NCBI GenBank assembly: GCA_003648195.1
Contig: QMOK01000003.1
Span: 1 to 39,526 of the forward strand
Direction of reading: 5' to 3'
DNA length: 39,526 bases
DNA from: Chloroflexota bacterium
GTDB taxonomy: Bacteria > Chloroflexota > Anaerolineae > Anaerolineales > UBA11858
This document shows, piece after piece, positions 1 to 36,910 of the stretch. Within the stretch, counting starts at the first letter, position 1; each line of letters opens with the position of its first letter. Under the pieces are notes generated by a model that was given only the letters and a program-made list of their open reading frames with translations, made no database searches and had not been told where the DNA came from. The position numbers were made by a program, and so were the translations under genes.

Positions 1-2584
1 AAAGTTTTGCGTGTTTTAGGCCTATGCGGGGATGAGCGTTTAGGGTATTGGTTACTGCCATTTGGTAATGTGCGTTCGCCAGGGCGTTGAACACTCTTGC
101 TTCTTCGGTACTGCCCGCCCCCAGAGTCAGCGCGTCTTGAAACATTTCTTCCGCTTTATCCAAGCGATTTAGCATATAGAGAAATACGCCTCTCCGAACC
201 AGGCTTTCTATGTACTCTGTTGTGTGCCGTGTTTCATCTAAATAAGTTAAAGCCCGATCAATAAAGGTAAGTCCTTCTTCAAATTCGCCAGTTGCCATGC
301 AGGCATCGCTCAAGTTTCCCCAAGCGGTACCTTTGAGCAAATCGTCCTCGCGTTGCTCTCCAATCTCTAATAAGGATTGGTTAAGTCGCTTCAATAATTC
401 AATGTCTTGGGTTTCAAAAGCGATGGCACTCCAAGTGGTGAAAAACCGGTATATTCGATTATTAGTGGGGGATAATTTGTGGGTTATTAATAGTTCTTCA
501 GCGTGTTGGAAAGCATGAACGGCTTCCGCCGAGGAAGCCAAGTGCCGGGCTTCTTCGCCTGCTTTCACCCAATAATGAAAAGCGGCTTCAAAAACTCCGG
601 CTTTTTCATAATGAGCGGCAATGATAGCGGGGGGCGCCTCTTCGTCTACTCTGATACGCGCGGCCTGATTGTGCAGCAGCACACAGCGAGCTGAGTTCAT
701 CCTCTGTAGTAAAACTTCACGAAATTTTTGCTGGACAAAGCGGTACTTGTGCAAATCGCTTTGGTTTTCTTTTTGCTCGGTAACAATATTTTTCTTAACC
801 GCTTTTTCAAACGCTATAAAGACTTCTTCTTCTGTTTCTGTTGTGGTCATTAGCGGCAATAGGCTCAAGTCAAAACTTGTTCCTAACACGGCTGCCGCCT
901 CCAAAATTCTATAGGTCGCTTCGTCTAATCCCATTAGACGTGTCTCTATAATTTTAGAAAGTTTTTCACTAATGGGCAATCCGGTTCCTGATTTTATATC
1001 GAATTTGACGTCCGCATCTAAAATAGCCCATAATATTTCCGCGATAAAAAGTGGGTTTCCGTCGGATTCTTGGGATAGCATTTGCGCTAATTCCCTTGAT
1101 GGAGATTCTTGAAGAATGTGATACGCTAATTTTGAGATGTCATTTAAGGATAATTTTTGCAGCCTTAGGAAATTTATGTGTTTGGAATCGCAGAATGAAT
1201 TCACTAATTCTGGGTATCTATATGTCAATTCGCCTTCGCGCGCAGTCCCAATCAACATTCCCCGCCCGTCCTTGAACGGATACCGTTCCATGAGGTAGGT
1301 GAACGTTTGTAAAGTAGCCTTATCCGCGTATTGAATGTCATCGAAAACGAGCAAAAGAGGCTTTTTAGAGGCTAGCAGTTTAAAGACTTGCCGAATAGCT
1401 TCTAGCAACAGATTTTCCCTTTGGGAATCGTCCGTGACTTCTATTTCTTCGACACTTGGCCGAATCATGGCAATCTCTGGCAACATCCGTGTCAAGCAGC
1501 TTACCCACGTGAGGGGCAGCTCAAGCCATTTCTCTGGCGTAATTTGATAACGAAATAGGCTTTTGAACGGTTGATATGATAGATTCACTTCATTGGGTTT
1601 GCAGGTAATGTAAAAGACATCTGCCCGTGAAGATATTTTATCTGCATATTCTTTGAGTACTCGCGTTTTGCCTTGTCCTACATCGCCAAGCAACAAAACG
1701 CTTTGCTGTTGTTTTCTACTCAGCCGTAATTGGGTAAGAATTTTCTCCCGACCCACTAAGGGCATATCTATTCCAGGGTGAATGTCCCAGGTAGGCTGCG
1801 GTTCTGGAATATCTACTGAAATTTCTTTCTGGATTTCCTGGTATAAGGCTACTAAGTTGGGAGCAGGGCCAACTCGTCCATGGGACAGCATCACCTTGGT
1901 CACTTTTCTATAGTATTCACGAGCCCGAGGCATTTCCCCTCGCTCTACAAGTATTTTCATTTGGAGGTAATGGAGATAATCCGAAGTGTTGTTTTCTTTG
2001 AGAGCCTGTTGAATCAAAGGTTCAGCAGATTGAAGGTCTCCAATTGTATGATAATAATCTGCCAAACGTTCAAGCACATCCCCGCGTAGTTTTTCTACTT
2101 CCTGCGCTATTTTCCGCACTTCGTTCTCAGCTTGTGGTTCACTTGAAAAATCAACCCCTTCTAAAAAGTGATTCCCATTCCACAAACCCAGTGCCCGATT
2201 TAATAGGTTAACAGTTTTACGGGGAAGTTTCTGTGTCCTAGCGGTACACCAAGGGATTTGCCCAACGTCATCTAGCAGGTCATGAAATTGGGTTAGGTCA
2301 ACATCTGTATGCTCAAAATCTAGCCCTATGAACTCATCTATTGAAATAATGAGTCCGGCATCGGGCAAGCTTGCTTTTAGTTGAGAAGACGCTTTTGCAA
2401 CCCAATTTGGAGAGGATGCTGTCTTATTCGCAAAAGCGATTTCCAGCTCCTCGCGAGAGATTAAACTATTTTGAAAAGCCAAATAATAAAAAAATAATTT
2501 CAAGAAAGGCTCATCAATATCAATAGTTTTTTTACCAAAATGAATTTTCGGCGTGCCAAGTAAATATACGTGAAACTGGTTCAT
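1..2584 (-). CDS. SARP/BTAD-domain transcriptional regulator with STAND-type AAA ATPase, probably TPR C-terminus (truncated at left edge)
   Basis: Not in the ORF track. Hand translation from ATG at 2584 (MNQFHVYLLGTPKIHF) gives BTAD-like LNRALGLWNGNHFLEG, then PLVGRE, Walker A GDVGQGKT, Walker B LLLVFDDIQYAD and SDGNPLFIAEI, all in one frame. Confidence 0.85.
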   Translation of the reverse strand, partial: MNQFHVYLLGTPKIHFGKKTIDIDEPFLKLFFYYLAFQNSLISREELEIAFANKTASSPNWVAKASSQLKASLPDAGLIISIDEFIGLDFEHTDVDLTQFHDLLDDVGQIPWCTARTQKLPRKTVNLLNRALGLWNGNHFLEGVDFSSEPQAENEVRKIAQEVEKLRGDVLERLADYYHTIGDLQSAEPLIQQALKENNTSDYLHYLQMKILVERGEMPRAREYYRKVTKVMLSHGRVGPAPNLVALYQEIQKEISVDIPEPQPTWDIHPGIDMPLVGREKILTQLRLSRKQQQSVLLLGDVGQGKTRVLKEYADKISSRADVFYITCKPNEVNLSYQPFKSLFRYQITPEKWLELPLTWVSCLTRMLPEIAMIRPSVEEIEVTDDSQRENLLLEAIRQVFKLLASKKPLLLVFDDIQYADKATLQTFTYLMERYPFKDGRGMLIGTAREGELTYRYPELVNSFCDSKHINFLRLQKLSLNDISKLAYHILQESPSRELAQMLSQESDGNPLFIAEILWAILDADVKFDIKSGTGLPISEKLSKIIETRLMGLDEATYRILEAAAVLGTSFDLSLLPLMTTTETEEEVFIAFEKAVKKNIVTEQKENQSDLHKYRFVQQKFREVLLQRMNSARCVLLHNQAARIRVDEEAPPAIIAAHYEKAGVFEAAFHYWVKAGEEARHLASSAEAVHAFQHAEELLITHKLSPTNNRIYRFFTTWSAIAFETQDIELLKRLNQSLLEIGEQREDDLLKGTAWGNLSDACMATGEFEEGLTFIDRALTYLDETRHTTEYIESLVRRGVFLYMLNRLDKAEEMFQDALTLGAGSTEEARVFNALANAHYQMAVTNTLNAHPRIGLKHAKL

Positions 2585-2756
2585 AGAAGTTTCGCAGAAA
2601 AGTTTATTTATTCAGGGTGACTAATATTACAGAGTCGTAAAATCCGCTTGTTGAACAGTGGCACATACAACGAAAAGGATACCAAAGGCGCATTCAATTT
2701 TATTACGAAGCGCATCAATATTTCATCGGCTTTTATGAGAACTATATGACAAGAGA

Positions 2757-4487
2757 CTACGAAGATTCAATTATCTTATCCGCTCTCGTTAAAATTTCTT
2801 GAGCAGCTTGTTTATTGCTCTCGCTAGTGCTTCCCAGCATTTGGGCAAGTTCATTTTGCCGCTCTTCGCCTGTTAAAATTCCCACTTGCGTGACTGTGCG
2901 TCCATCCTTAATTTGCTTTTGAACGCGGAAGTGCTGCTGCCCAAAGCCAGCCAGTTGCGGTAGGTGAGTGATGCAAAGGACTTGATGTTCAACTGCTAAG
3001 AGCCGTAACTTGTGCCCCACAACAGTGCCCACCCGCCCTCCAATTCCTTGGTCAATTTCATCGAATACCAAGGTAGAGATGCTGTCAACGTTAACTAGCA
3101 CTTGTTTCAAGGCCAGCATCAGACGGGATGTTTCTCCGCCAGAGGCGACTTTCGCCAGAGGTTTCAAGCCTTCGCCGGGGTTGGTTTCTACCATGAATTC
3201 AATCTCTTCTAGGCCATCTTGAGTGTAGGCTAGTCGGCGGTTACCATCTACTGGCACACCCGCTGGGTCTGGGGTTTGATGAAAATTAACTCGGAAGCGA
3301 GCTTGCGCCATGCGCAAGTCTTCCAATTCTTTCTCTAGGGCTGCTGCCATTTGCTCTGCGCCTGTCTGACGGCGCTGCGTTAGAAGTTGGCCTTTCGCGC
3401 CTAATTCTGGGAGCAGATTTTCTACTATCGCTTCTAACTCGATAATACGCGCGTTGCTATTGGTGATTGTTTCTAGTTCAGCACGAGCGTTCTCAGCGTA
3501 ATTCAAAACTTCTGGGATTGTTTGACCGTATTTCCGCTTTAAGGAGCGTATCACATCTAAGCGTTCTTCAACTTCTGCAAGTCGTCCGGGGTCAAATTCT
3601 ATGACGTTCAAATAGTCGTGCAAGTCGTGCGCCAGCTCTGCGATGCCTTCAAATAGGTCATTAGCTTTCTCGCTCAACGCAGTTTGAGAAGGATCAGTAT
3701 TAGTCAAATTTGTAATATTATCTACGATCTGACCTAGAAGCTCCGTGACTGTAGGTTGGTCTGGGGGAGCTTCATCTAGGAGGCTCAAGGCAATTTGGGA
3801 AAGTTCAGCCAGTTTTTCTGAATTTGCCAAACGTTTGTGTTCTTGTTTTAGTTCTTCATCTTCTCCATCGGCAAGATTTGCCATGTCAATTTCGTTCAGT
3901 TGATAAGCTAATAACTCGGAACGCTGGGCATTGTCGTACTCAGATTTCCTTAATTTGGTTAATTCTTGTTTGGTTTGCTGTAATTCGCGGTAAGTTTTTC
4001 GATAATCGGCTAAGGCTTCTCCTACATCTGCGTAGCGGTCTAGCAAGCCAATGTGTTGGTTGACGCGCATAAGCGAAAGATGTTCAAATTGGCCGTGGAT
4101 ATCGACTAGGCACTCTCCTAGTTCAACTAGAATGCTCACGCTGGTGCGGTGTCCATTCACACGGGCTACGTTTTGTCTATCACGTCTGAGTTCCCGGCTT
4201 AGGGTGAGGTAGTCGGTGTCTTCTAACAGTGCTTCACGTTTGAGAATGGCAAACACTTGTTTTTTGACTTTCGCTGGGATACAGAAAACCGCTTCCACGC
4301 TTGCTCGTTCGGCACCGCTTCGGAGGTCTGTCATATCTGCCCGATTCCCCAGCAGCATGCCCAAAGCGCCCATAATAATGGATTTTCCAGCCCCTGTTTC
4401 TCCAGTAAAGACAGTTAGGCCTGGCTTAAATTCTAGCTCAAGTTCGTTTATAATGGCGAAGTTTTTAATACGAAGTTCAGTAAGCAT
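2757..4487 (-). CDS. recN: DNA repair protein RecN
   Basis: MLTELRIKNFAII start, Walker A GETGAGKS, IHGQ Q-loop, coiled coil, ASGGETSRLMLALK signature, FDEIDQGIGG. Start reassigned to ATG 4487. Confidence 0.97.
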   Translation of the reverse strand: MLTELRIKNFAIINELELEFKPGLTVFTGETGAGKSIIMGALGMLLGNRADMTDLRSGAERASVEAVFCIPAKVKKQVFAILKREALLEDTDYLTLSRELRRDRQNVARVNGHRTSVSILVELGECLVDIHGQFEHLSLMRVNQHIGLLDRYADVGEALADYRKTYRELQQTKQELTKLRKSEYDNAQRSELLAYQLNEIDMANLADGEDEELKQEHKRLANSEKLAELSQIALSLLDEAPPDQPTVTELLGQIVDNITNLTNTDPSQTALSEKANDLFEGIAELAHDLHDYLNVIEFDPGRLAEVEERLDVIRSLKRKYGQTIPEVLNYAENARAELETITNSNARIIELEAIVENLLPELGAKGQLLTQRRQTGAEQMAAALEKELEDLRMAQARFRVNFHQTPDPAGVPVDGNRRLAYTQDGLEEIEFMVETNPGEGLKPLAKVASGGETSRLMLALKQVLVNVDSISTLVFDEIDQGIGGRVGTVVGHKLRLLAVEHQVLCITHLPQLAGFGQQHFRVQKQIKDGRTVTQVGILTGEERQNELAQMLGSTSESNKQAAQEILTRADKIIESS

Positions 4488-4488
4488 A

Positions 4489-5007
4489 TTAGTGATTGAA
4501 TTGGTAGTAGACTGTTGTAGTAACAATCGTAGAGTAAAGTCCTATCCAAGTTAGGGGTAAAATCGCTCCCAGCCCCAGGCTTTCAATTATAAGCACAGAG
4601 CCAATAATGTTGATGAGCAAAATGGGAACGCTTCCCAAGAAAGACGCGGCAGCGACCACTTGATAAAGTCTAGGAGAACGCCTTTTTTTAGTTATTTTCC
4701 GAACTATTGCCACAATGATGGCGCCGACTATGGGGGCAATGAAAACAACGTAAAATCCAAAAGCCCCTGCCAGCAAGCTCCCTAAAAATGAGAGTATTCC
4801 CGCTGCCAAAGAACCTGATAAATAATCATACCACTTTGTGGTGATAAATATTTTTTGCTGGTTTTTTATACATTCGGGGCAACGGTAGCCAGTGGGAGTA
4901 TGTTGAGCGCATTTTAGGCAGATAGGTCTTCCGCACTTGTTACAGCGCAAACGAGTTTCACGTTTGGGGTGAAAGGCGCAGGTAAGGGGTGGTGAATTCT
5001 CGCTCAT
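4489..5007 (-). CDS. B-box-type zinc-finger membrane protein
   Basis: N-terminal CAFHP...CNKCGRPICLKC...CPEC followed by about 4 hydrophobic helices. Start overlaps the nadK stop. Confidence 0.75.
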   Translation of the reverse strand: MSENSPPLTCAFHPKRETRLRCNKCGRPICLKCAQHTPTGYRCPECIKNQQKIFITTKWYDYLSGSLAAGILSFLGSLLAGAFGFYVVFIAPIVGAIIVAIVRKITKKRRSPRLYQVVAAASFLGSVPILLINIIGSVLIIESLGLGAILPLTWIGLYSTIVTTTVYYQFNH

Positions 5008-5858
5008 TGTTTTTTCTCTATTGATGGGTTGCAGCTCATGTGAGGGGTAAGGTTTCGGTAAAAATACCCTGGGTCTTCAAAACGAACGAAGCGGACAGTG
5101 TGTTCACCAGCTCTAATTTCAATACGATCACTTTCTTGAAGTTCAATGGGAAATTGTCCATCAATGGAAAGTACGGCTTCGTGTTCGGTATGAGCTAACA
5201 CAGAAATATGGGAGCCTTCTGCTAAAACAATGGATTGCTCAATGGAAAGATGAGGTGCCAAGGGGACGAGAAGAATATTGCGCAATTCTGGTAATAGAAT
5301 AGGCCCCCCGGCTGCCATGGCATAAGCGGTAGAACCTGTTGGCGTAGAGGTAATAATGCCATCGGCCACATAGGTGCTTAATAGCCGTTCATCGACATAA
5401 ACTTCTAGTCGAATAGGTCGAGCAAATCTTCCTCGGCTGATAACGGCATCATTAAGGGCCATCCACTGCCCAATTTGTTGTTCGTCACGCCACTGTGCTA
5501 TTTTCAACGTCATGCGATCTTCAAGCCAAAACTCGCCCCGAGCCAACCGGCCAAGGGCGTCTTGCCATTCATCGTGCCCAATCTCGGTGAGAAAACCAAA
5601 TTTGCCTAAATTAATCCCTAGAATAGGCGTCCCGCTGGGAGCGCACATATGTCCCGCTCGGAGCATTGTTCCATCTCCGCCCAAGGCAATGAATAAATCT
5701 TGTTCGTCAACATCAAGGTCGTTAAGCATACCCGCTACAACTTCTAAATTTCTTTCACGAAGATGTTCCGCGATTTGCTCAACAAGTTGAGATGCCTCTA
5801 TAAATTTGGGATGAGTGCCTATTAGTATTCTTCGAAATTCAGAGAGTTTTCTTGTCAT
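5004..5858 (-). CDS. nadK: NAD(+) kinase
   Basis: GGDGT motif, GINLGKFGFL, LND, DGIITSTPTGSTAYAMAAGGP. ATG at 5858 overlaps the upstream TAA (TAATG). Confidence 0.95.
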   Translation of the reverse strand: MTRKLSEFRRILIGTHPKFIEASQLVEQIAEHLRERNLEVVAGMLNDLDVDEQDLFIALGGDGTMLRAGHMCAPSGTPILGINLGKFGFLTEIGHDEWQDALGRLARGEFWLEDRMTLKIAQWRDEQQIGQWMALNDAVISRGRFARPIRLEVYVDERLLSTYVADGIITSTPTGSTAYAMAAGGPILLPELRNILLVPLAPHLSIEQSIVLAEGSHISVLAHTEHEAVLSIDGQFPIELQESDRIEIRAGEHTVRFVRFEDPGYFYRNLTPHMSCNPSIEKKQ

Positions 5859-6382
5859 TAACTTTTTTCGGGTTCTAGTGATTGGTCGCATTTGGCGCGG
5901 TAGCCGCATTTCGCGCATCGTGCCAGAACTTGGTGATCTCTTGGCACGCTGGTTCGAAACTCGTCCCGGCGCATGTCGGCCAGCACATCTAAAAGAGAGT
6001 CCTCAAGTTCTTCTGTATAGTCAATGCGAAATGTTTTTTGGGGGTAATGCAAAATCCCGTAGGAAGGCCGGCGTCTGTATTCTGTTTCTACCAGTTTACA
6101 GTAAACGGCCAATTGAAAAACATGAGCATCGTAAGGTTCATTGCGCACCTTGCTTGACTTAACCTCAACGGGGATAATTTCCCCGCCGTGCTCTACTAAA
6201 TAGTCTGGCTTGCCCGTCAGCTTTAAAACAGCATCGTAAAGCGGATTCTCGACTGCTCCCCATTTTCGCGTGTCGGCGTAGATGACCTTTCCGGGAGGCA
6301 TGGCGGTTGATTGCCGTTGGCGTTGAGAGACCCAGAATAAAACTATCGCCGCTAAAAATACAAAAAACGCTAGATATAACAT
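5858..6382 (-). CDS. cas4: Cas4-like PD-(D/E)XK nuclease, C-terminal catalytic part with N-terminal TM helix
   Basis: GKPDYL (motif II), EVKS (motif III), QLAVY, C-terminal C-x2-C-x5-C (CAKCGYRAKC). N-terminus is MLYLAFFVFLAAIVLFWVSQRQR. Lacks the first Fe-S Cys. Confidence 0.85.
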   Translation of the reverse strand: MLYLAFFVFLAAIVLFWVSQRQRQSTAMPPGKVIYADTRKWGAVENPLYDAVLKLTGKPDYLVEHGGEIIPVEVKSSKVRNEPYDAHVFQLAVYCKLVETEYRRRPSYGILHYPQKTFRIDYTEELEDSLLDVLADMRRDEFRTSVPRDHQVLARCAKCGYRAKCDQSLEPEKS

Positions 6383-6395
6383 TTTTGCCGCAACC

Positions 6396-6650
6396 TTAAA
6401 CGAGATGCCGCGCTACGTAAACGGTGAACAATCCCAATGCCAACAAGATTAATGCATAAGCTAAAAGTCGCAGCAATCCACTGACGAATACCGTTGTTCC
6501 GTGCTGATAGTGAAGCTCCTGACCATTGACCAATTCCTGCTCGTTTTGGGATCTGACACCTTTAATGGCGTACCACCAGGCACGCTTGCAATACAAATAA
6601 GAAGCAATTTCAGACGCTCGAATGATACGCCGTTCTGATTTTTTGGTCAT
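6396..6650 (-). CDS. Cas4-like N-terminal module with C-terminal TM helix
   Basis: IRASEIASYLYCKRAWWY matches the Cas4 N-terminal Cys motif, GQELH matches motif I, then LLAYALILLALGLFTVYVA. ATG 6650 preferred over TTG 6683. Confidence 0.75.
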   Translation of the reverse strand: MTKKSERRIIRASEIASYLYCKRAWWYAIKGVRSQNEQELVNGQELHYQHGTTVFVSGLLRLLAYALILLALGLFTVYVARHLV

Positions 6651-6685
6651 TGGTGTTTCGCTATCTTCTCTACTTGCCGCCAAGT

Positions 6686-7009
6686 TTATTCATCGGTTGG
6701 GGTGGGAGGATGAAATAAAGATTCGGCCAAAGAGGTAAAACCAGGTGATTTGATTTCGCCAAATTTCTGTTCGTACTTAGCAATGTTTTCCTGTAAGGCA
6801 TGACAAAACGCTTTAACGCTTAAAGGGCTCATAAGAATACGAGACTTGATCTCTGGCCTTTTTTGGCCCGGCAACATCCGCGCAAAGTCTAGCACTACTT
6901 CAGAAGGAGAATGCGCGATGCGCACTAAATTCACATACTGTGCTTCTAAATCAGGAGGCAAATCCACTGAGAGTAAATTTTTTTTTATGTTTTCTTGATT
7001 TTGGCTCAT
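6686..7009 (-). CDS. DUF3467 family protein
   Basis: YVNLVRIAHSPSEVVLDFA...SRILMSP...K...ALQENIAKYEQKFGEI pattern. ATG at 7009. Confidence 0.85.
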   Translation of the reverse strand: MSQNQENIKKNLLSVDLPPDLEAQYVNLVRIAHSPSEVVLDFARMLPGQKRPEIKSRILMSPLSVKAFCHALQENIAKYEQKFGEIKSPGFTSLAESLFHPPTPTDE

Positions 7010-7070
7010 GTTTGTATTTTCCCGGCTTGTTAGCAGCAATAAAAAATCTTCGCCGTCTTACCACAAAGTC

Positions 7071-7105
7071 ACAAAGTACACGAAGTTTTTCTCCGTGTAC
7101 TTTGT
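7071..7105. repeat. 12-bp inverted repeat between ssb and DUF3467 (REP-like or terminator)
   Basis: ACAAAGTACACG (7071-7082) / CGTGTACTTTGT (7094-7105). Confidence 0.55.
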
Positions 7106-7135
7106 TTATTTGTAATTGGCGATAACGAGTGTGAT

Positions 7136-7558
7136 CTAAAAGGGAATCTCATCTTCTTCGGCTGGGGGTTGACCTCCCACATTGCCCTGAGCTTGGTAAG
7201 CCTCATTTTCTGCTTTACTGGACAAGAAAACTACTCGATTGGCGGAAATTTCAAAACTGGCGCCCGCCGAGCCATCCTGTCGAGTCCAAATTCGGGGGCC
7301 GCCGGTTTGGGGGTCTGGTTTGATACGGCCTTCTACTAACACTTTGCTACCCCTGCTAAGGTATTGGTTAACCGATTCGCCTTGGGCTCCCCATACTGAG
7401 ACACGGAACCAGGTTGTTTCTTCTTGTTTCTGCCCATCATTACTAGTCCAACGCCGACTTGTAGCAACGGAGATATTAGTAACAGCTCGCCCATCCGGCA
7501 TGTAGCGCAATTCTGGGTCACGGCCTAAGTTTCCTACAATAATAATTTTCTGATACAT
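7136..7558 (-). CDS. ssb: Single-stranded DNA-binding protein
   Basis: IVGNLGRDPELRY, ETTWFRVSVWG, GSKVLVEGR, acidic tail EEDEIPF. AAAGGAG SD before ATG 7558. Confidence 0.97.
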   Translation of the reverse strand: MYQKIIIVGNLGRDPELRYMPDGRAVTNISVATSRRWTSNDGQKQEETTWFRVSVWGAQGESVNQYLSRGSKVLVEGRIKPDPQTGGPRIWTRQDGSAGASFEISANRVVFLSSKAENEAYQAQGNVGGQPPAEEDEIPF

Positions 7559-7669
7559 GGTAATTTCTCCTTTTGAATAAACCGCAGATCTTAATTTATC
7601 TGAACAACGCCTATTATACAATGTTTTAGCGTGAGATGTGAGGCATGAAAAATCCTCATTCGTCACTCC

Positions 7670-8659
7670 TTACGCTTTATTAGACCATTCTCGCGTTCGG
7701 GCGAATAATTCCTTGAGAGGACGCAATTCGTGAACGGGAAGAGTCAGGTTCTCTGTTTGCGTCCTCTGCCCAGAGAATATGCGATTCCCGCTTGGTAAAC
7801 GCTTAGCCTTCCGCGCAAATGTCTCTCCCTGCAAATAGCCCACAAAAACCATTCTCATTCCGTAAACCCAAATATTAGCCCATTGCGAAGAAGAGATAAG
7901 ATAAGGCTCTTCCCAAGTGGGAATATGCACCCCTATCACACCATCCGGCCATTTAGCAACTTGAAGGTAGCTTAAAGTCTGAAAATTTACCAGCGCTTCA
8001 ACCCGCTCTCTGGGAATGAGCATCAAACGCGTTGTTTGAAATTCTCCTTTGATGTTCTGCCCCCCCAGCGTAACCTCAACAGGTTCGGTAGTATCGCATT
8101 TCAGGGTTACCTTGCCAATGGGGTTTCCGTCACGCGAACGGGACACATCGGCGGGCAAACTATGAATAAGGTGAACGTGTTGCCCGGCTTTTACCGCTTG
8201 TTCTACACGCTGACGAGTTCCAGTGATCAACGCGGTTAGAAAAGCGAATACATAAATCCAATTTCGTACTTGGGGCAAGCCAGGAACCTGTTCGGCGGGG
8301 ATAACAGTTTGAGCCTGCAATAATGTTTGGGGAGATTGATGAGCCAAGCGAATACGGTTTTTCTCTAAAAGCAGCGAGGTGCTCAACGCACATCGCCAGC
8401 CGCCTAAATTGAGAAGGCAATCTTCTGGATTAGCAAACTGCGCCGAACCCCAAACCTCGTGCGGGATTTCCCGGGCGACAAGATAACGTTTGAATGCAAG
8501 CTCCACGCCTTTATAAGCCACAATCTGGCGCAAACGCTCAGGAATGTTTTCGCACCTCTGAGAATAGAAATATGGCAAGGAACGAAGCCCATAAGCTATT
8601 CCAGCCCAAGTCAAATCATCGCTATACGAAAGGGTCAAAAAGTCTGCGCTTGTAACCAT
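7670..8659 (-). CDS. Hypothetical protein, possibly degenerate restriction-endonuclease-like fold
   Basis: 329-aa ORF co-oriented with its neighbours. GVELAFKRYL helix resembles PD-(D/E)XK motif I. Family not firmly recognised. Confidence 0.6.
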   Translation of the reverse strand: MVTSADFLTLSYSDDLTWAGIAYGLRSLPYFYSQRCENIPERLRQIVAYKGVELAFKRYLVAREIPHEVWGSAQFANPEDCLLNLGGWRCALSTSLLLEKNRIRLAHQSPQTLLQAQTVIPAEQVPGLPQVRNWIYVFAFLTALITGTRQRVEQAVKAGQHVHLIHSLPADVSRSRDGNPIGKVTLKCDTTEPVEVTLGGQNIKGEFQTTRLMLIPRERVEALVNFQTLSYLQVAKWPDGVIGVHIPTWEEPYLISSSQWANIWVYGMRMVFVGYLQGETFARKAKRLPSGNRIFSGQRTQTENLTLPVHELRPLKELFARTREWSNKA

Positions 8660-8670
8660 GTTTCTATTAA

Positions 8671-8706
8671 GCGTAAAACGTGATCAGTGATGGCTACGTT
8701 TTACGC
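8671..8706. repeat. 11-bp inverted repeat (REP-like hairpin)
   Basis: GCGTAAAACGT / ACGTTTTACGC in the intergenic gap. Confidence 0.5.
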
Positions 8707-8714
8707 CTCATTTT

Positions 8715-9467
8715 TTACTCTATATCTCTCACAATCAAGTCTGTAAAACTAACGGTGACGGCGTTTTCGCCTACAGAGCGAGCGAAAACACCAAAAGACC
8801 CCAACGCAATCTGATCATCAATCACAGAAAATTGATAATCGCCGTTTATGAAAAAGTGAAGTTCGCTATTCTTGGCCCACACGCCCAAGCGAGATTCGCC
8901 AGGGGCTGCCGTGGGAACGGAAGCGCTGGGAAGCCAGTCTTGAGGGGAAAAAGCAACTCCGTTCAAAATACGATCTAAACGCACCTCTCCATCACAAGAC
9001 AACGAATAGCGGTAATAAGAAACATTTCTTGCTGCCCGAAACATTAACCCGTACTCATCTTTACCAACACACAAGTTAGTGCGAGCTGTTATTTCAACAT
9101 AAAAATCAGTGAATAGCGCGCCTTCTAACACACTGTACAAAAAGACTCCGGGAGCATTAATGACCAAGTTTATCGCGTGGTTGTTTATGTTCACGCTCCC
9201 CCTAATAGTGTCTTCTAGCAACCATTCACCTGGCGTGCTGAAATCATCGCTGAAGATGATGTCTCTCGTACCAGGCGAGAATTGGGGGGCAGGTGTAAAC
9301 ATTTGGGTAGGGGCTGGAATTGGTGTTTCGGTAGCGGGAAACCATTCCACCGTTGCCGTGGGAGATGGCGAGGGGGTGACGGTTATTGTCGGTAAGGGCG
9401 CGGGGGTTGGAGCAGCTAGGCAGGAGGTCAGGCTCAACGCCAGGAGGAAGAAAATGATTTTCCGCAT
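8715..9467 (-). CDS. Lipoprotein with Pro/Thr linker and DUF1080/ConA-like beta-sandwich domain
   Basis: Signal MRKIIFFLLALSLTSC (lipobox), P/T tract, FSDDFS...DFYVE...YGLMFR...FFING...GSFG. Confidence 0.7.
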   Translation of the reverse strand: MRKIIFFLLALSLTSCLAAPTPAPLPTITVTPSPSPTATVEWFPATETPIPAPTQMFTPAPQFSPGTRDIIFSDDFSTPGEWLLEDTIRGSVNINNHAINLVINAPGVFLYSVLEGALFTDFYVEITARTNLCVGKDEYGLMFRAARNVSYYRYSLSCDGEVRLDRILNGVAFSPQDWLPSASVPTAAPGESRLGVWAKNSELHFFINGDYQFSVIDDQIALGSFGVFARSVGENAVTVSFTDLIVRDIE

Positions 9468-9476
9468 GAGAGGTCT

Positions 9477-10766
9477 CTAACGCCGAATTATCTGGTCTCG
9501 TTCAGGGCCTACAGAAACCAAGCTTACCGGCACATCCACCAAGGTTTCTATACGCTGGATGTATGCCTGCGCCTGAGCGGGGAGATCCGCCCATTTCCGC
9601 ACCTCCCAAACGTCTTTCTCCCACCCTGGCAATTCTTCGTAAACAGGTTCAAAGGGAGTTAAATCTTTTGGGCCGAGGGGGAGATTTTCTAGCGTTTTGC
9701 CATCAGTTTTGTATCCCGTGCAAATTCGCAGGGTATTAAGCCCGGTGAGGATATCCAATTTGGTGAGAGTAAGCTCGGTGAGGCCATTGATTTGAACCGC
9801 GTACCGCAAGAGAACAGCGTCTAACCACCCCACTCGGCGTGGACGCCCTGTAGTGGTTCCAAACTCATCCCAGGGGTTGGTGCCTGTTCCCCTTAGGCGT
9901 GTTGCCGCCTCCCCGAACACTTCGGTGGGGAATGGGCCTTCGCCTACGCGGGTTTGGAAGGCTTTGGTTACCCCAACCACGCGATTGGTGCGGCCTACGC
10001 CTAATCCTAGCCCCACCAGGGCGCCAGGGGCAGTAGGTGTAGAGCTGGTCACGAAGGGATAGGTTCCATGGTCTAGGTCTAGCAATGTACCCTGCGCGCC
10101 TTCTGCCAGCACATATTTGCCGTTTTTGAGGGCGGTTGATAATAGGGTCGTTATGTCACCCACGTAGGGGGCCAATATGCGGGCATATCCAACGTATTCT
10201 TGAGCTACAGATTGCGCGTCAAGGGGTGGCGCGCCATAAAGTGATGTGAGTTGCTGGTTGATTTTTTCAATATGCGCCATAATTTCATCGGCGAATGTTT
10301 CTGGAGAAAGAACGGATTCCATGCGGATTCCGCTTCGAGCGGCTTTGTCATTGTAGGCTGGGCCAATTCCTCGTTGGGTGGTGCCAATTTTGCCTGCGCC
10401 ACGGGCCATCTCGCGGGCCTTGTCTAGGGCAATGTGCCCAGGGGTAATTACGTGCGCAGCGTATGAGATGCGCATGCGCTGAGGGTTAATGTTAACGCCC
10501 GCTCCACGGATTTGTTCCATTTCGGCCAGCAACACGGCGGGGTTGATGACCATCCCGTTTCCTAGCACGCCAATGGTATGGGGGTGAATTACGCCAGAGG
10601 GGATGAGGTGGAGCTTGAAAGTTTGCTCTCCCACTGTAACGGTATGCCCGGCGTTATCTCCTCCCGAATAACGGGCTACGTAATCTGCCTCCGAGGCTAA
10701 TAAATCTACCACGCGCCCTTTCCCCTCGTCTCCCCATTGCGCGCCAACTATGATATTGAATGTCAT
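9477..10766 (-). CDS. purA: Adenylosuccinate synthetase
   Basis: QWGDEGKG, GGDNAGHT, IGTTQRGIGPAY, EGAQG, EFGTTTGRPRRVGWLD, TKLD. Confidence 0.98.
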   Translation of the reverse strand: MTFNIIVGAQWGDEGKGRVVDLLASEADYVARYSGGDNAGHTVTVGEQTFKLHLIPSGVIHPHTIGVLGNGMVINPAVLLAEMEQIRGAGVNINPQRMRISYAAHVITPGHIALDKAREMARGAGKIGTTQRGIGPAYNDKAARSGIRMESVLSPETFADEIMAHIEKINQQLTSLYGAPPLDAQSVAQEYVGYARILAPYVGDITTLLSTALKNGKYVLAEGAQGTLLDLDHGTYPFVTSSTPTAPGALVGLGLGVGRTNRVVGVTKAFQTRVGEGPFPTEVFGEAATRLRGTGTNPWDEFGTTTGRPRRVGWLDAVLLRYAVQINGLTELTLTKLDILTGLNTLRICTGYKTDGKTLENLPLGPKDLTPFEPVYEELPGWEKDVWEVRKWADLPAQAQAYIQRIETLVDVPVSLVSVGPERDQIIRR

Positions 10767-10868
10767 GATTACCTCCTAAGTACTTTAAGGTGATGTTTTT
10801 CACTACTCTAAAACAGCTAAAGCATTGAAAATGTTAGCGGTCAGTTCATGCATGTCACCCCAAAAATT

Positions 10869-10891
10869 GGGCAAGCTTTAGAAGTTTGCCC
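10869..10891. repeat. Short palindrome GGGCAAGCTT-TAG-AAGTTTGCCC (REP-like)
   Basis: Imperfect 10-bp stem in the divergent purA/SDR spacer. Confidence 0.45.
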
Positions 10892-10984
10892 CAAGATTGG
10901 AATGATACATTTATTCTAGCATAAACCACCTAAGAATAAATACAAAGGTAAAATAATACCATAAGTAAAAACGAGGAAAAATCC

Positions 10985-11995
10985 ATGCTTAAAAAAACAA
11001 CTTTAATTACCGGCGTTTGCGGTGAAATTGGGCAGGCACTTCTAGAAACCCTCGCCGAGAAAAAAGAACACAACATAGTCACTTTCGACTTAAAACCGCT
11101 TCCTAAGGCATTTCAGGGAAAATCTACCCACATTGAGGGGGACATCCTAGACGAAAGTATCCTTGCTCATTTAGCTAATGAATATGAGTTTGAAGTTATT
11201 TATCATATGGCAGCTCTGCTTTCTACAACTGGAGAAAAGAAACCGCTGCTAGCCCACGAAGTTAATGCCTGCGGGACGATTGCGCTCATGGAAATAGCCA
11301 GTAAGCAATCCCGGGCGCGCGGTGAGCGGGTCAAGTTCATCTTTCCCAGCTCAATTGCCGCCTATGGCCTCCCCGACCTAAAAACCAAAACGGAACATTA
11401 TTACATTGGCGAAAAGGAATGTACCGAGCCTACCACCATGTATGGATGCACCAAGCTCTACTGTGAGAAAATAGGGAATTATTATAGCGAATATTTGTTG
11501 CAGTTGGCAGAAGAAGCGCCAGTGCGGATGGATTTCCGGTCACTGCGTTTTCCGGGATTAATTAGCGCTTTCACCGTTCCCAGCGGGGGAACCAGCGACT
11601 TTGGTCCCGAGATGTTACACGCTGCCGCCCAAAATAAGCCGTATGCCTGCTTCGTGCGCCGTGATGTGCGCATCCCATTCATGGTTATGCCAGACGCAGT
11701 AAAATCTCTTATCACGCTAGCAAATGCTCCGTTAGAAAATTTAAGTACGCGGGTCTATAATGTGACTAGTTTTAGCCTCTCCGCCGAAGATTTCGAAGAG
11801 CAGGTGCAAAAATATTTCCCCAACGCAGAAATCACGTTTGAACCAGACCTAAAGCGTCAGGCTATTGTTGATAGTTGGCCCGCCGATTTGAATGACGATG
11901 CAGCTCGCAAAGATTGGGGGTGGAAACCAGATTATGACGTCACACGGGCTTTTGAAGAATATTTAGTGCCTAATATCCGCAAGCGTTACAGATAG
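10985..11995 (+). CDS. Extended SDR, probable L-threonine 3-dehydrogenase
   Basis: TGVCGEIG Rossmann motif, HMAALLS, PSSIAAYG, PTTMYGCTK (YxxxK), RFPGLIS...GGTSDF, IVDSWP, typical of SDR-type TDH. Confidence 0.8.
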   Translation: MLKKTTLITGVCGEIGQALLETLAEKKEHNIVTFDLKPLPKAFQGKSTHIEGDILDESILAHLANEYEFEVIYHMAALLSTTGEKKPLLAHEVNACGTIALMEIASKQSRARGERVKFIFPSSIAAYGLPDLKTKTEHYYIGEKECTEPTTMYGCTKLYCEKIGNYYSEYLLQLAEEAPVRMDFRSLRFPGLISAFTVPSGGTSDFGPEMLHAAAQNKPYACFVRRDVRIPFMVMPDAVKSLITLANAPLENLSTRVYNVTSFSLSAEDFEEQVQKYFPNAEITFEPDLKRQAIVDSWPADLNDDAARKDWGWKPDYDVTRAFEEYLVPNIRKRYR

Positions 11996-22058: not shown

Positions 22059-22883
22059 ATGGCTACTTACCAAGAATCAATGCAAATGCTCAAACTAACA
22101 AGCCGAACATTTTATCTGCCCATCGTTCGGTTACCTAAAGGAATCAGGGAAGCTGTTGCGTCTGGATACCTTTGTCTTCGAGCAATTGATGAAGTAGAAG
22201 ACCATCCCACCTTAGAAGCAGAGCACAAAGCCAGAATACTCCACACCATCAGCCAAATTTTTCAAGCCCAAACATCGGCAGACTCTTTTGCTTACCATGC
22301 CCTTGAAACAGCTTTTGTGGAATATCATGACGTTCTGCCTGAAGTAACCCTGCGCGTTGGAGAATGGGCATGCCTAGCACCAACCTTTATAGCCCCTCGC
22401 GTCTGGGAGGCGACAGCTACAATGGCCGATCGTATGGCTCATTGGGCCGCCAATGGATTTGAAGTGGTCTCAATAGCGGACTTGGACCGCTATACTTACG
22501 GTGTGGCCGGGGCGGTAGGCTTGCTGCTTTGCGATCTTTGGGCTTGGTTTGAAAAAATACAAATTCACCGTACACACGCTATCCAATTTGGACGTGGTTT
22601 ACAAACTGTTAATATTTTGCGTAACCGCAGCGAAGACTTGTCTCGCGGGGTGAATTTCTTTCCCGAAGATTGGGACAAGGCGCGCATGTTCGCTTACGCT
22701 CGTGAGAATCTCGATAGTTTCAGTGATTACGCTAAAACATTGCCCAAAACAACATTTATGAATTTTGTCGCAATCCCCCGCGCGCTGGCTTACGCTACTC
22801 TTAATGTCTTAGAGCGCGGCGAAAAGAAACTCACCCGCAAAGCGGTGATGGAGATAGTTAAGCAACTTGAGTCAAAAGCATAG
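22059..22883 (+). CDS. Squalene synthase (phytoene/squalene synthase family, cyanobacterial type)
   Basis: TSRTFYLPI, YLCLRAIDEVEDHP, DLDRYTYGVAGAVG, FGRGLQTVNILRN. As recalled, closely resembles Synechocystis Sll0513. Confidence 0.85.
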   Translation: MATYQESMQMLKLTSRTFYLPIVRLPKGIREAVASGYLCLRAIDEVEDHPTLEAEHKARILHTISQIFQAQTSADSFAYHALETAFVEYHDVLPEVTLRVGEWACLAPTFIAPRVWEATATMADRMAHWAANGFEVVSIADLDRYTYGVAGAVGLLLCDLWAWFEKIQIHRTHAIQFGRGLQTVNILRNRSEDLSRGVNFFPEDWDKARMFAYARENLDSFSDYAKTLPKTTFMNFVAIPRALAYATLNVLERGEKKLTRKAVMEIVKQLESKA

Positions 22884-22906
22884 TTAAGCAACTTTTATCA
22901 AAAACA

Positions 22907-36661: not shown

Positions 36662-36910
36662 GGGAGCACTCAAAGGTTGTTGGAAAGCTCTGCCCCCTGT
36701 CAAGTGTAATTTGATAGGCTCGTTTTAGGGCATGGAATTGATTCCATGTTTACATGCGATTGCGGATTGAGAGGGGCTAAGGTTTAACCAACAACTTTTT
36801 AGCACACCCTCCTTTAGGGAGCACTAAAAGGTTGTTGGAAAAAATGTCACTTCGTCAGGGTAAATTGTAGCGGCATTAGAGGATTAACCAACAACTTTTT
36901 AGCACTCCCC
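36662..36910. mobile_element. Two tandem MITE family D copies (36662-36809, 36817-36910)
   Basis: Each runs GGGAGCACT(C/A)AAAGGTTGTTGG ... CCAACAACTTTTTAGCAC(A/T)CCC. TCCTTTA occurs before, between and after. Confidence 0.8.

Follow-up and report, generated by a model that had tools for sequence, protein, structure and literature searches.

The 39,526-nucleotide (nt) stretch analysed here, referred to as the window, is contig QMOK01000003.1 (positions 1 to 39,526, forward strand) of the Chloroflexota bacterium assembly GCA_003648195.1, order Anaerolineales. Two neighbouring genes on its minus strand, Cas4N and Cas4C, most probably encode, as separate genes inherited together, the two subunits of a single membrane-tethered Cas4-family PD-(D/E)xK nuclease, with a 4Fe-4S cluster and a likely role at DNA ends. 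The split form of Cas4 is real, widespread and conserved across hundreds of Chloroflexota species, and seems to be overlooked and undescribed.

The Cas4N and Cas4C genes

Cas4N (positions 6396..6650, minus strand) encodes the small subunit, with 84 amino acids (aa) counted from the ATG codon; an alternative TTG start at position 6683 gives 95 aa. Residues 1-55 correspond to the Cas4 N-terminal helices and include the first cluster cysteine, C21, and the G-x3-H motif (G43, H47, H50). A transmembrane (TM) helix at residues ~57-80 follows, and the chain ends with a tail of 4-5 aa. The large subunit, Cas4C (5858..6382, minus strand; 174 aa), starts with a TM helix (residues 1-19), which passes through a basic stretch, RQRQ, into the Cas4 core with the motifs GKPD (D60), ExK (E73, K75), QxxxY (Q90, Y94) and C156-x2-C159-x5-C165. 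Three cluster cysteines and most of the catalytic residues are located on Cas4C, while the fourth cysteine and the histidine of G-x3-H are on Cas4N. The reading frames of the two genes differ, and they are separated by a 13-nt spacer (6383..6395, minus strand), which extends from the TAA stop of Cas4N (6396-6398) to the ATG of Cas4C (6380-6382). Hydropathy (Kyte-Doolittle, 19-residue window) peaks at 2.41 for residues 62-80 of Cas4N and at 2.52 for residues 1-19 of Cas4C.

The Pfam profile PF01930 (Cas_Cas4) aligns with residues 13-50 of Cas4N (profile 3-41, E 3.3e-4, 21.2 bits) and with residues 54-165 of Cas4C (profile 51-158, E 2.5e-11), so that the two proteins combined cover profile positions 3-41 and 51-158 of 160. 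With TIGR00372 (cas4), Cas4N matches positions 2-45 of 180 (E 3.2e-5, under the cut-off) and Cas4C positions 32-178 of 180, with 74.6 bits, above the curated cut-off of 65. The best PADLOC Cas4 models give E values of 2.4e-7 (Cas4N) and 2.2e-21 (Cas4C), and the pair is matched in PADLOC by generic Cas4 and DruK nuclease models only. Single-sequence searches of either protein against the sequences of the PDB returned no matches, and profiles were required. The Cas4C family profile matches solved Cas4 structures (8d3l, 4.4e-8; 4r5q, 7mi4 and 4ic1), and the catalytic residues D60, E73, K75, Q90 and Y94 align with the equivalent stretch of these chains. The Cas4N profile alone gave chance matches only against the PDB sequences. 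The Cas4N part aligns with residues 7-58 of 8d3l, cysteine and G-x3-H included (weak by itself, independent E value 0.98), and its G-x3-H motif lines up with the EGQHLH stretch of this type I-C Cas4.

The residues R11, A12, S13, E14, I15, C21, R23, A24, W25, G43, H47 and H50 of Cas4N are invariant among 39 homologues. In Cas4C, D37, G57, P59, D60, P71, E73, K75, Q90, Y94, Y113, C156, C159 and C165 are invariant among 76 homologues. This pattern indicates that the key residues of both families are under purifying selection. An initial annotation of this DNA had described the upstream 84-aa open reading frame (ORF) as the Cas4 N-terminal motif with the first cysteine and a terminal TM helix, in agreement with the profile, hydropathy and conservation results; its description of the second ORF, 13 nt further on in another frame, as a TM helix with basic residues and the remaining Cas4 motifs is confirmed as well.

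Conservation of the split

The junction of the two genes is found, with no letters inserted or deleted, in independently assembled contigs from three studies, one covering positions 5700-6800, one 5772-6800 (depth ~21) and a third 6368-6500. These contigs originate from marine sediment and hydrothermal vent metagenomes, and one of the runs may be the source of the window itself. Relatives are encoded in at least 597 stretches of species-representative genomes, mostly labelled as metagenome-assembled genomes (MAGs) of Anaerolineae or Anaerolineales. In the best 80 of these stretches (L036-L115) all open frames were searched with the N and C profiles: the halves are separate ORFs in 78 loci and fused in none, and the two exceptional loci have less than 700 nt of upstream DNA. 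The initial annotation of a Cas4-like nuclease divided over two genes, each with one TM anchor, is therefore borne out by the contigs and by 78 of the 80 loci, with the small ORF kept along with the large one wherever the upstream DNA does not run out. No continuous ORF was found in the independent contigs, in the 80 loci or among the matches listed from 401 genomes of the phylum.

The relative frame of the two genes is 0, +1 and +2 in 27, 17 and 34 of the 78 loci, respectively. The spacing of N stop and C start varies between -13 and +96 nt in the window and 13 order-level loci, and in the same set the ATG of Cas4C is found consistently ~54-58 residues ahead of GKPDY. In 17 of the 78 loci the halves are 658-1334 nt apart, with a gene for a 210-aa helical-repeat protein between them. 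The differences in frame, the variable gap and the fixed position of the ATG exclude programmed frameshifting or stop read-through as the normal route of expression; both were considered and rejected, as the frames vary between loci and other genes can separate the halves.

In genome G025 the conserved gene block is broken exactly between the halves, and these are found on different contigs with unrelated neighbours. Contig C258 (locus L151) carries ssb-DUF3467-translin-Cas4N followed by an ABC transporter gene on the opposite strand, and contig C178 (locus L034) carries cysS, an rRNA-methylase-like gene, Cas4C and nadK. Cas4C has 1359 database relatives at E <= 0.001, the best 120 all with 169-177 aa, and the 39 relatives of Cas4N have 78-95 aa.

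Single-chain relatives and the proposed origin of the split

A HMMER scan of 1.84 billion representative sequences returned 1181 relatives of Cas4C. Most of the best 150 have ~170-180 aa, and five are single-chain proteins of 265-301 aa, each with a hydrophobic stretch of ~45-60 residues. A further search with one fused protein found ~16 additional full-length fused forms (254-294 aa), together with N-terminally shortened calls of the fused type, one of them labelled as a Dehalococcoidia MAG. The fused relatives (P0254, P0261, P0264, P0269, P0295 and P0310-P0324) start with the N-terminal Cas4 motif, followed by a hydrophobic hairpin, basic residues and finally the C domain. The window pair aligns with a fused protein end to end, with the break located between the hydrophobic helices. 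The 13-nt spacer thus appears to mark the fission point and to match the turn of the TM hairpin in the single-chain relatives.

The fold was assessed on P0318 as a single chain, the window pair being modelled as a complex only. In the AlphaFold2 model of P0318 (predicted local distance difference test, pLDDT, 91.9; predicted template modelling score 0.87) a Cas4-like core is observed, from which helices 37-87 and 91-126 extend, forming a hairpin whose turn has three residues. The best Foldseek matches in the PDB are the Cas4 structures 8d3l (1.6e-6) and 7mi4, with E values of ~2e-6 to 7e-6, followed by Dna2, ACE1, MGME1 and SSO0001; AdnAB is also among the fold matches.

The split is not peculiar to the genome of the window, and single-chain hairpin forms exist elsewhere. 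Matches to a fused query were obtained in 146 of 401 sampled Chloroflexota genomes. Among the matches listed, none covers the whole query without a stop, and those few which extend over its full length are interrupted by in-frame TGA codons, one or two each; the split is hence the usual form in this phylum. In an atlas search for the single-chain hairpin form, Thermoplasmatota clusters were matched, a lead only.

A quick tree of the C domain shows fused and split forms interleaved, with 6 changes in the best tree and at least 2 that well-supported branches force, and fission, or re-fusion, has accordingly occurred more than once. This tree, based on 170 columns, includes a very long outgroup branch and leaves 27 of its 47 inner branches unresolved, and its 'split' rows were labelled by length alone; it reports the interleaving and not the order of events. 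The fused P0264 (286 aa) is nested among split forms in the tree, and its two TM helices are joined by a linker of unusual length that is not conserved. This protein may have arisen by secondary re-fusion or be an artefact of gene calling. In the proposed history, an ancestor would have gained the two-helix TM hairpin by an insertion that separated the catalytic core from the helices at the N-terminus, and the gene would later have been cut, in Chloroflexota, within the turn of that hairpin.

Co-inheritance of the halves

Searched for separately, Cas4N and Cas4C were found in the identical 16 of 41 related genomes. In all five same-genus genomes that were inspected, the block ssb-(DUF3467)-nadK-Bbox-recN is retained with both halves gone. 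Outside the order the halves stay together in 27 of 30 loci, while nadK adjoins the pair in just 18 of 30, which leaves the other half as the only universal partner of each half. The distribution suggests that the pair is vertically inherited and dispensable.

Probable assembly and membrane topology

The complex of Cas4N and Cas4C was predicted with family alignments for both chains and the 4Fe-4S cluster as a ligand. The score is 0.82 (median of three runs, 0.80-0.84), and the best of three controls is 0.01. In the calibration of the method, 58 of 80 solved complexes reached this mark, as did 2 of 110 mismatched pairs. The runs share at least 82% of contacts, with a partner pLDDT of at least 65. 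The interface predicted with confidence is formed by residues 7-36 of Cas4N against 49-59, 85-97 and 130-167 of Cas4C, with residue 21 of Cas4N in contact with residue 155 of Cas4C. In the model, the segment containing C21 thus abuts Cas4C 155-167, beside C156, C159 and C165, as is needed for the four cysteines to converge. The initial annotation had the enzyme assembling across two polypeptides joined by their TM helices; the model supports an interface between the catalytic domains, and the joining by TM helices, which fall outside the confident interface, is not supported.

In the Cas4C family the TM helix is preceded by a median of 2 residues with 0.09 lysine plus arginine (K+R), and the 15 residues after it contain 3.59 K+R. 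In the Cas4N family the TM helix is followed by a median tail of 7 aa with 0.28 K+R, and the 15 residues before it contain 1.87 K+R. By the positive-inside rule both soluble parts should be cytoplasmic, the location that an Fe-S enzyme requires.

It is likely, as the complex model suggests, that Cas4N and Cas4C together form a single Cas4 fold on the inner side of the membrane and are bridged by the cluster. Cas4N would provide C21 as the first cysteine of the cluster, together with the G-x3-H histidine, with its C-terminal TM helix as the anchor. Cas4C would provide the aspartate, Glu-x-Lys, Gln-x3-Tyr and the three other cysteines, anchored by its N-terminal TM helix. On the cytoplasmic side, both subunits would contribute across their interface to the Fe-S cluster and probably also to the metal site.

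Gene neighbourhood

The pair is located within a block of genes on one strand of the window, in the order ssb (7136-7666), DUF3467 gene (6686..7039, minus strand), Cas4N, Cas4C, nadK (5004..5858, minus strand), B-box membrane protein gene (4489-5007, minus strand) and recN. The DUF3467 gene, directly upstream of Cas4N, is part of the conserved context. The NAD kinase gene nadK is directly downstream of Cas4C, and its ATG overlaps the Cas4C stop codon, an arrangement (TAATG) that makes co-transcription of the two probable; nadK is considered as context and not as part of the enzyme. The B-box membrane protein (172 aa) has an N-terminal B-box-type zinc finger and four hydrophobic/TM helices. Its gene is always found between nadK and recN, even in genomes without the Cas4 pair. 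PADLOC gave no match for this protein or for DUF3467.

Across the Anaerolineales an operon-like block of the form ssb-DUF3467-(translin)-Cas4N-Cas4C-nadK-B-box membrane protein-recN is observed. The nadK gene is directly downstream of the pair in 74 of 77 loci with enough downstream DNA, and NadK-Bbox-RecN follows the pair in 14 of 15 order-level loci. Directly upstream of Cas4N, the three sets of loci contain a translin-family gene (PF01997, E ~4e-7 to 4e-6) in 10 of 15, 33 of 80 and 3 of 30 cases, for example in L024 (3590-4234, plus strand), L123 (2343-2975, minus strand) and L151 (3348-3986, plus strand), and also at loci where nadK no longer adjoins. PF01997 is absent from the window and was not found in its genome (93.5% complete).

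The gene that separates the halves (for example in L040, 2342-2974, plus strand) was noted at 18 of the 80 Anaerolineae loci; it is conserved, is duplicated in L046, and encodes an all-helical, ARM/HEAT-like protein of 210 aa. Its Pfam matches are limited to sub-threshold HEAT, Adaptin and PDS5 models, and its AlphaFold2 model (pLDDT 93.4) matches designed armadillo repeats only. An assignment as an AlkD-like repair protein was tried and dropped, since structure and Pfam searches gave no support. The ARM/HEAT-like protein may be a third partner of the pair.

A promoter and terminator scan of positions 2500-11000 found sites no commoner than in shuffled sequences (10 versus 10.3 and 8 versus 10.2), and operon boundaries cannot be drawn from it. 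Among the sequencing runs listed as containing the stretch, none is an RNA run. Two ORFs without a Pfam match, at 7670-8659 (minus strand, 329 aa) and 8715-9467 (minus strand, 250 aa), keep their position upstream of ssb in several related genomes. Downstream of recN, at 2-2584 (minus strand), there is a BTAD/AAA ATPase/TPR regulator of 861 aa, open at the window edge.

In agreement with the initial annotation, searches of the window found no cas1, no other cas gene and no CRISPR-like array. Its repeats, two 30-nt direct repeats 100 nt apart and 93% alike (36780-36909) and a 26-nt unit repeated 1.9 times (22854-22905), are not CRISPR-array-like. The only Cas1 of the genome (343 aa) is encoded on contig C230 (L001), beside an ordinary single-chain cas4 of 227 aa and a RAMP gene fragment. 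The organism therefore has both a CRISPR-associated Cas4 and the split solo form.

Alternative explanations and cellular role

The short distance of 13 nt between ORFs in different frames and the existence of fused relatives would fit a sequencing or assembly frameshift, or a recent pseudogene, in an organism with one continuous Cas4 gene with a TM hairpin. This explanation retains practically no probability and is already refuted by the contigs, the loci and G025: there is no junction indel in contigs from three studies, none of the 80 loci is fused, all three relative frames are seen, 17 loci have an intervening gene, the halves of G025 are on different contigs, and each half has its own conserved ATG, ~56 residues ahead of GKPDY. 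It is also very improbable that only Cas4C is functional and that Cas4N is a decaying remnant or an unrelated small membrane protein. Such a reading would agree with the scores of Cas4N, which alone remains under the curated Cas4 cut-offs, and with its public annotation, mostly 'hypothetical protein'. Against it, Cas4N has 12 invariant residues, C21 and H47 among them, it matches Cas4C exactly in presence and absence over the 41 genomes, and it is kept even where unlinked to Cas4C; Cas4C by itself has three of the four cluster cysteines, and the complex model is confident. A service in CRISPR adaptation in trans, with the pair as an extra Cas4 for the Cas1-Cas2 of the genome, is suggested by the passing of the TIGR00372 cas4 equivalog cut-off by Cas4C and by its public annotation as 'CRISPR-associated exonuclease Cas4'. 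We give it just a slight chance, as the only Cas1 of the genome already adjoins its own single-chain Cas4 on another contig, the window is without a cas gene or array, and the conserved neighbours of the pair are ssb, nadK and recN rather than cas genes. The placement of the pair outside CRISPR adaptation in the initial annotation is upheld by this evidence and by the housekeeping character of the neighbours.

As for the role, the most likely job of the pair would be the processing of DNA ends near the membrane, with housekeeping repair slightly preferred over defence against entering DNA. The company of ssb, translin and recN and the vertical inheritance favour DNA end processing or repair, and a repair-type housekeeping role is plausible, with a probability somewhat short of even. 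Anti-invader defence, in which a nuclease at the inner membrane face would degrade entering phage, plasmid or transforming DNA while the tether holds it away from the chromosome, is a less likely role. Defence genes are often patchy and dispensable, and the pair, which is predicted to be a cytoplasm-facing DNA nuclease tethered to the membrane, is itself dispensable and patchy within the genus, having gone from 23 of 24 genomes; defence roles with Argonaute are, moreover, described for the Cas4 family (PMC12094033). However, the pair is not in a defence island and occupies a stable housekeeping block at 74 of 77 loci, PADLOC gives generic Cas4 and DruK models only, with no match for the neighbours, and the inheritance looks vertical across an order and beyond, as is stated of most solo-cas4 genes in the main text of Hudaiberdiev et al. 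2017 (PMC5704561). Defence where DNA enters the cell agrees about as well as repair with the membrane tether and with the clean removal of the pair from most of the genus. Roles other than repair or defence take the rest of the probability. That the pair substitutes for missing end-resection enzymes was considered and rejected, with two RecJ and a PDDEXK_1 match in a 987-aa frame present in the genome.

Several points weigh against the two-subunit, membrane-tethered nuclease acting at DNA ends. Cas4N alone remains under the curated cut-offs of Pfam (22.7, narrowly missed) and TIGRFAM. The TM helices were assigned by hydropathy alone, and in the complex model they are outside the confident interface, which leaves the re-pairing of the hairpin unsupported. 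The complex pass may stem from the model's memory of solved single-chain Cas4 structures, and the use of our own alignments and of the 4Fe-4S ligand deviates from the calibration of the score. The pair was found in 1 of 24 other same-genus genomes and not in the remaining 23. The repair role is drawn from gene order, which is possibly inherited synteny, as nadK adjoins the pair in 18 of 30 loci outside the order. The two RecJ matches and the PDDEXK_1 match of the genome, the latter in an open frame of a large RecB/AddB-type protein, indicate that the pair is not the sole end-processing nuclease.

A more specific form of the two-subunit nuclease is a heterodimeric, membrane-embedded Fe-S enzyme that is redox- or iron-gated, in which insertion or loss of the cluster, ligated by both polypeptides, would control assembly. 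We consider this idea speculative and rather unlikely. If true, it would place a gated nuclease at the cytoplasmic membrane of Chloroflexota, which might act together with the recurrently linked translin-like and ARM-repeat proteins in a system that processes DNA (or RNA) near the membrane and has so far gone unnoticed.

Comparison with known Cas4 proteins and related nucleases

The public labels 'CRISPR-associated Cas4' for Cas4C and 'hypothetical protein' for Cas4N cause CRISPR components to be miscounted and hide the small subunit. With its catalytic site and Fe-S cluster predicted to be rebuilt across an interface, the pair is a naturally divided system in which the contribution of the cluster to the folding and assembly of Cas4, AddB and Dna2-type nucleases could be studied. 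The pair further suggests that Chloroflexota carry out a membrane-linked DNA transaction, one that is not known to have been studied.

To our knowledge, Cas4 enzymes are soluble single chains. The pair has the whole-domain profile match, the catalytic motifs, the four cysteines and, in the P0318 model, the fold of the Cas4 family, and departs from the norm of a single soluble polypeptide in having two genes with one TM helix each. By these features of sequence and fold it is a member of the Cas4 family and of its solo-Cas4 group that differs by membrane anchoring and two-gene encoding. Full-text searches, with most subscription journals outside their coverage, turned up no paper on a Cas4 that is split or anchored in the membrane.

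The closest described group is solo-Cas4 (PF01930/COG1468), with which the pair shares the fold and the motifs (1+3 Cys, D, ExK, QxxxY). It likewise lies outside cas loci and mobile elements, has housekeeping flanks and is apparently inherited vertically. Unlike solo-Cas4 as described, the pair consists of two genes, and the product of each has a TM helix. A monophyletic solo-Cas4 group in 'many Chloroflexi' is reported by Hudaiberdiev et al. 2017 (PMC5704561), who state that solo-Cas4 proteins had not been studied experimentally; the words 'transmembrane' and 'split' are both absent from the main text of their paper.

The best profile and structure matches are CRISPR-associated Cas4 proteins (type I-C 8d3l, the Cas4-Cas1 fusion 7mi4, SSO0001 4ic1 and Pcal_0546 4r5q), and the cluster and catalytic residues are conserved in both. 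CRISPR-associated Cas4 proteins are encoded beside or fused to cas1/cas2; each is a soluble protein, either a single chain or a fusion with Cas1, that acts together with Cas1-Cas2. In contrast, the pair has no cas neighbours, and it has a ~60-residue hairpin at an insertion site where it is split. The single-chain hairpin Cas4-like proteins (P0318, P0269, P0254 and others; 254-301 aa) have the same domain order and hairpin position as the pair, and differ in being one polypeptide.

More distant similarity is observed to the nuclease domains of the AddB/RecB family and of Dna2, MGME1 and ACE1, which share the PD-(D/E)xK core. A four-cysteine iron-staple arrangement is common to AddB, Dna2 and Cas4. 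These nucleases are soluble domains, stand-alone or within large helicase-nucleases, whereas the pair would be a membrane-anchored enzyme of two subunits.

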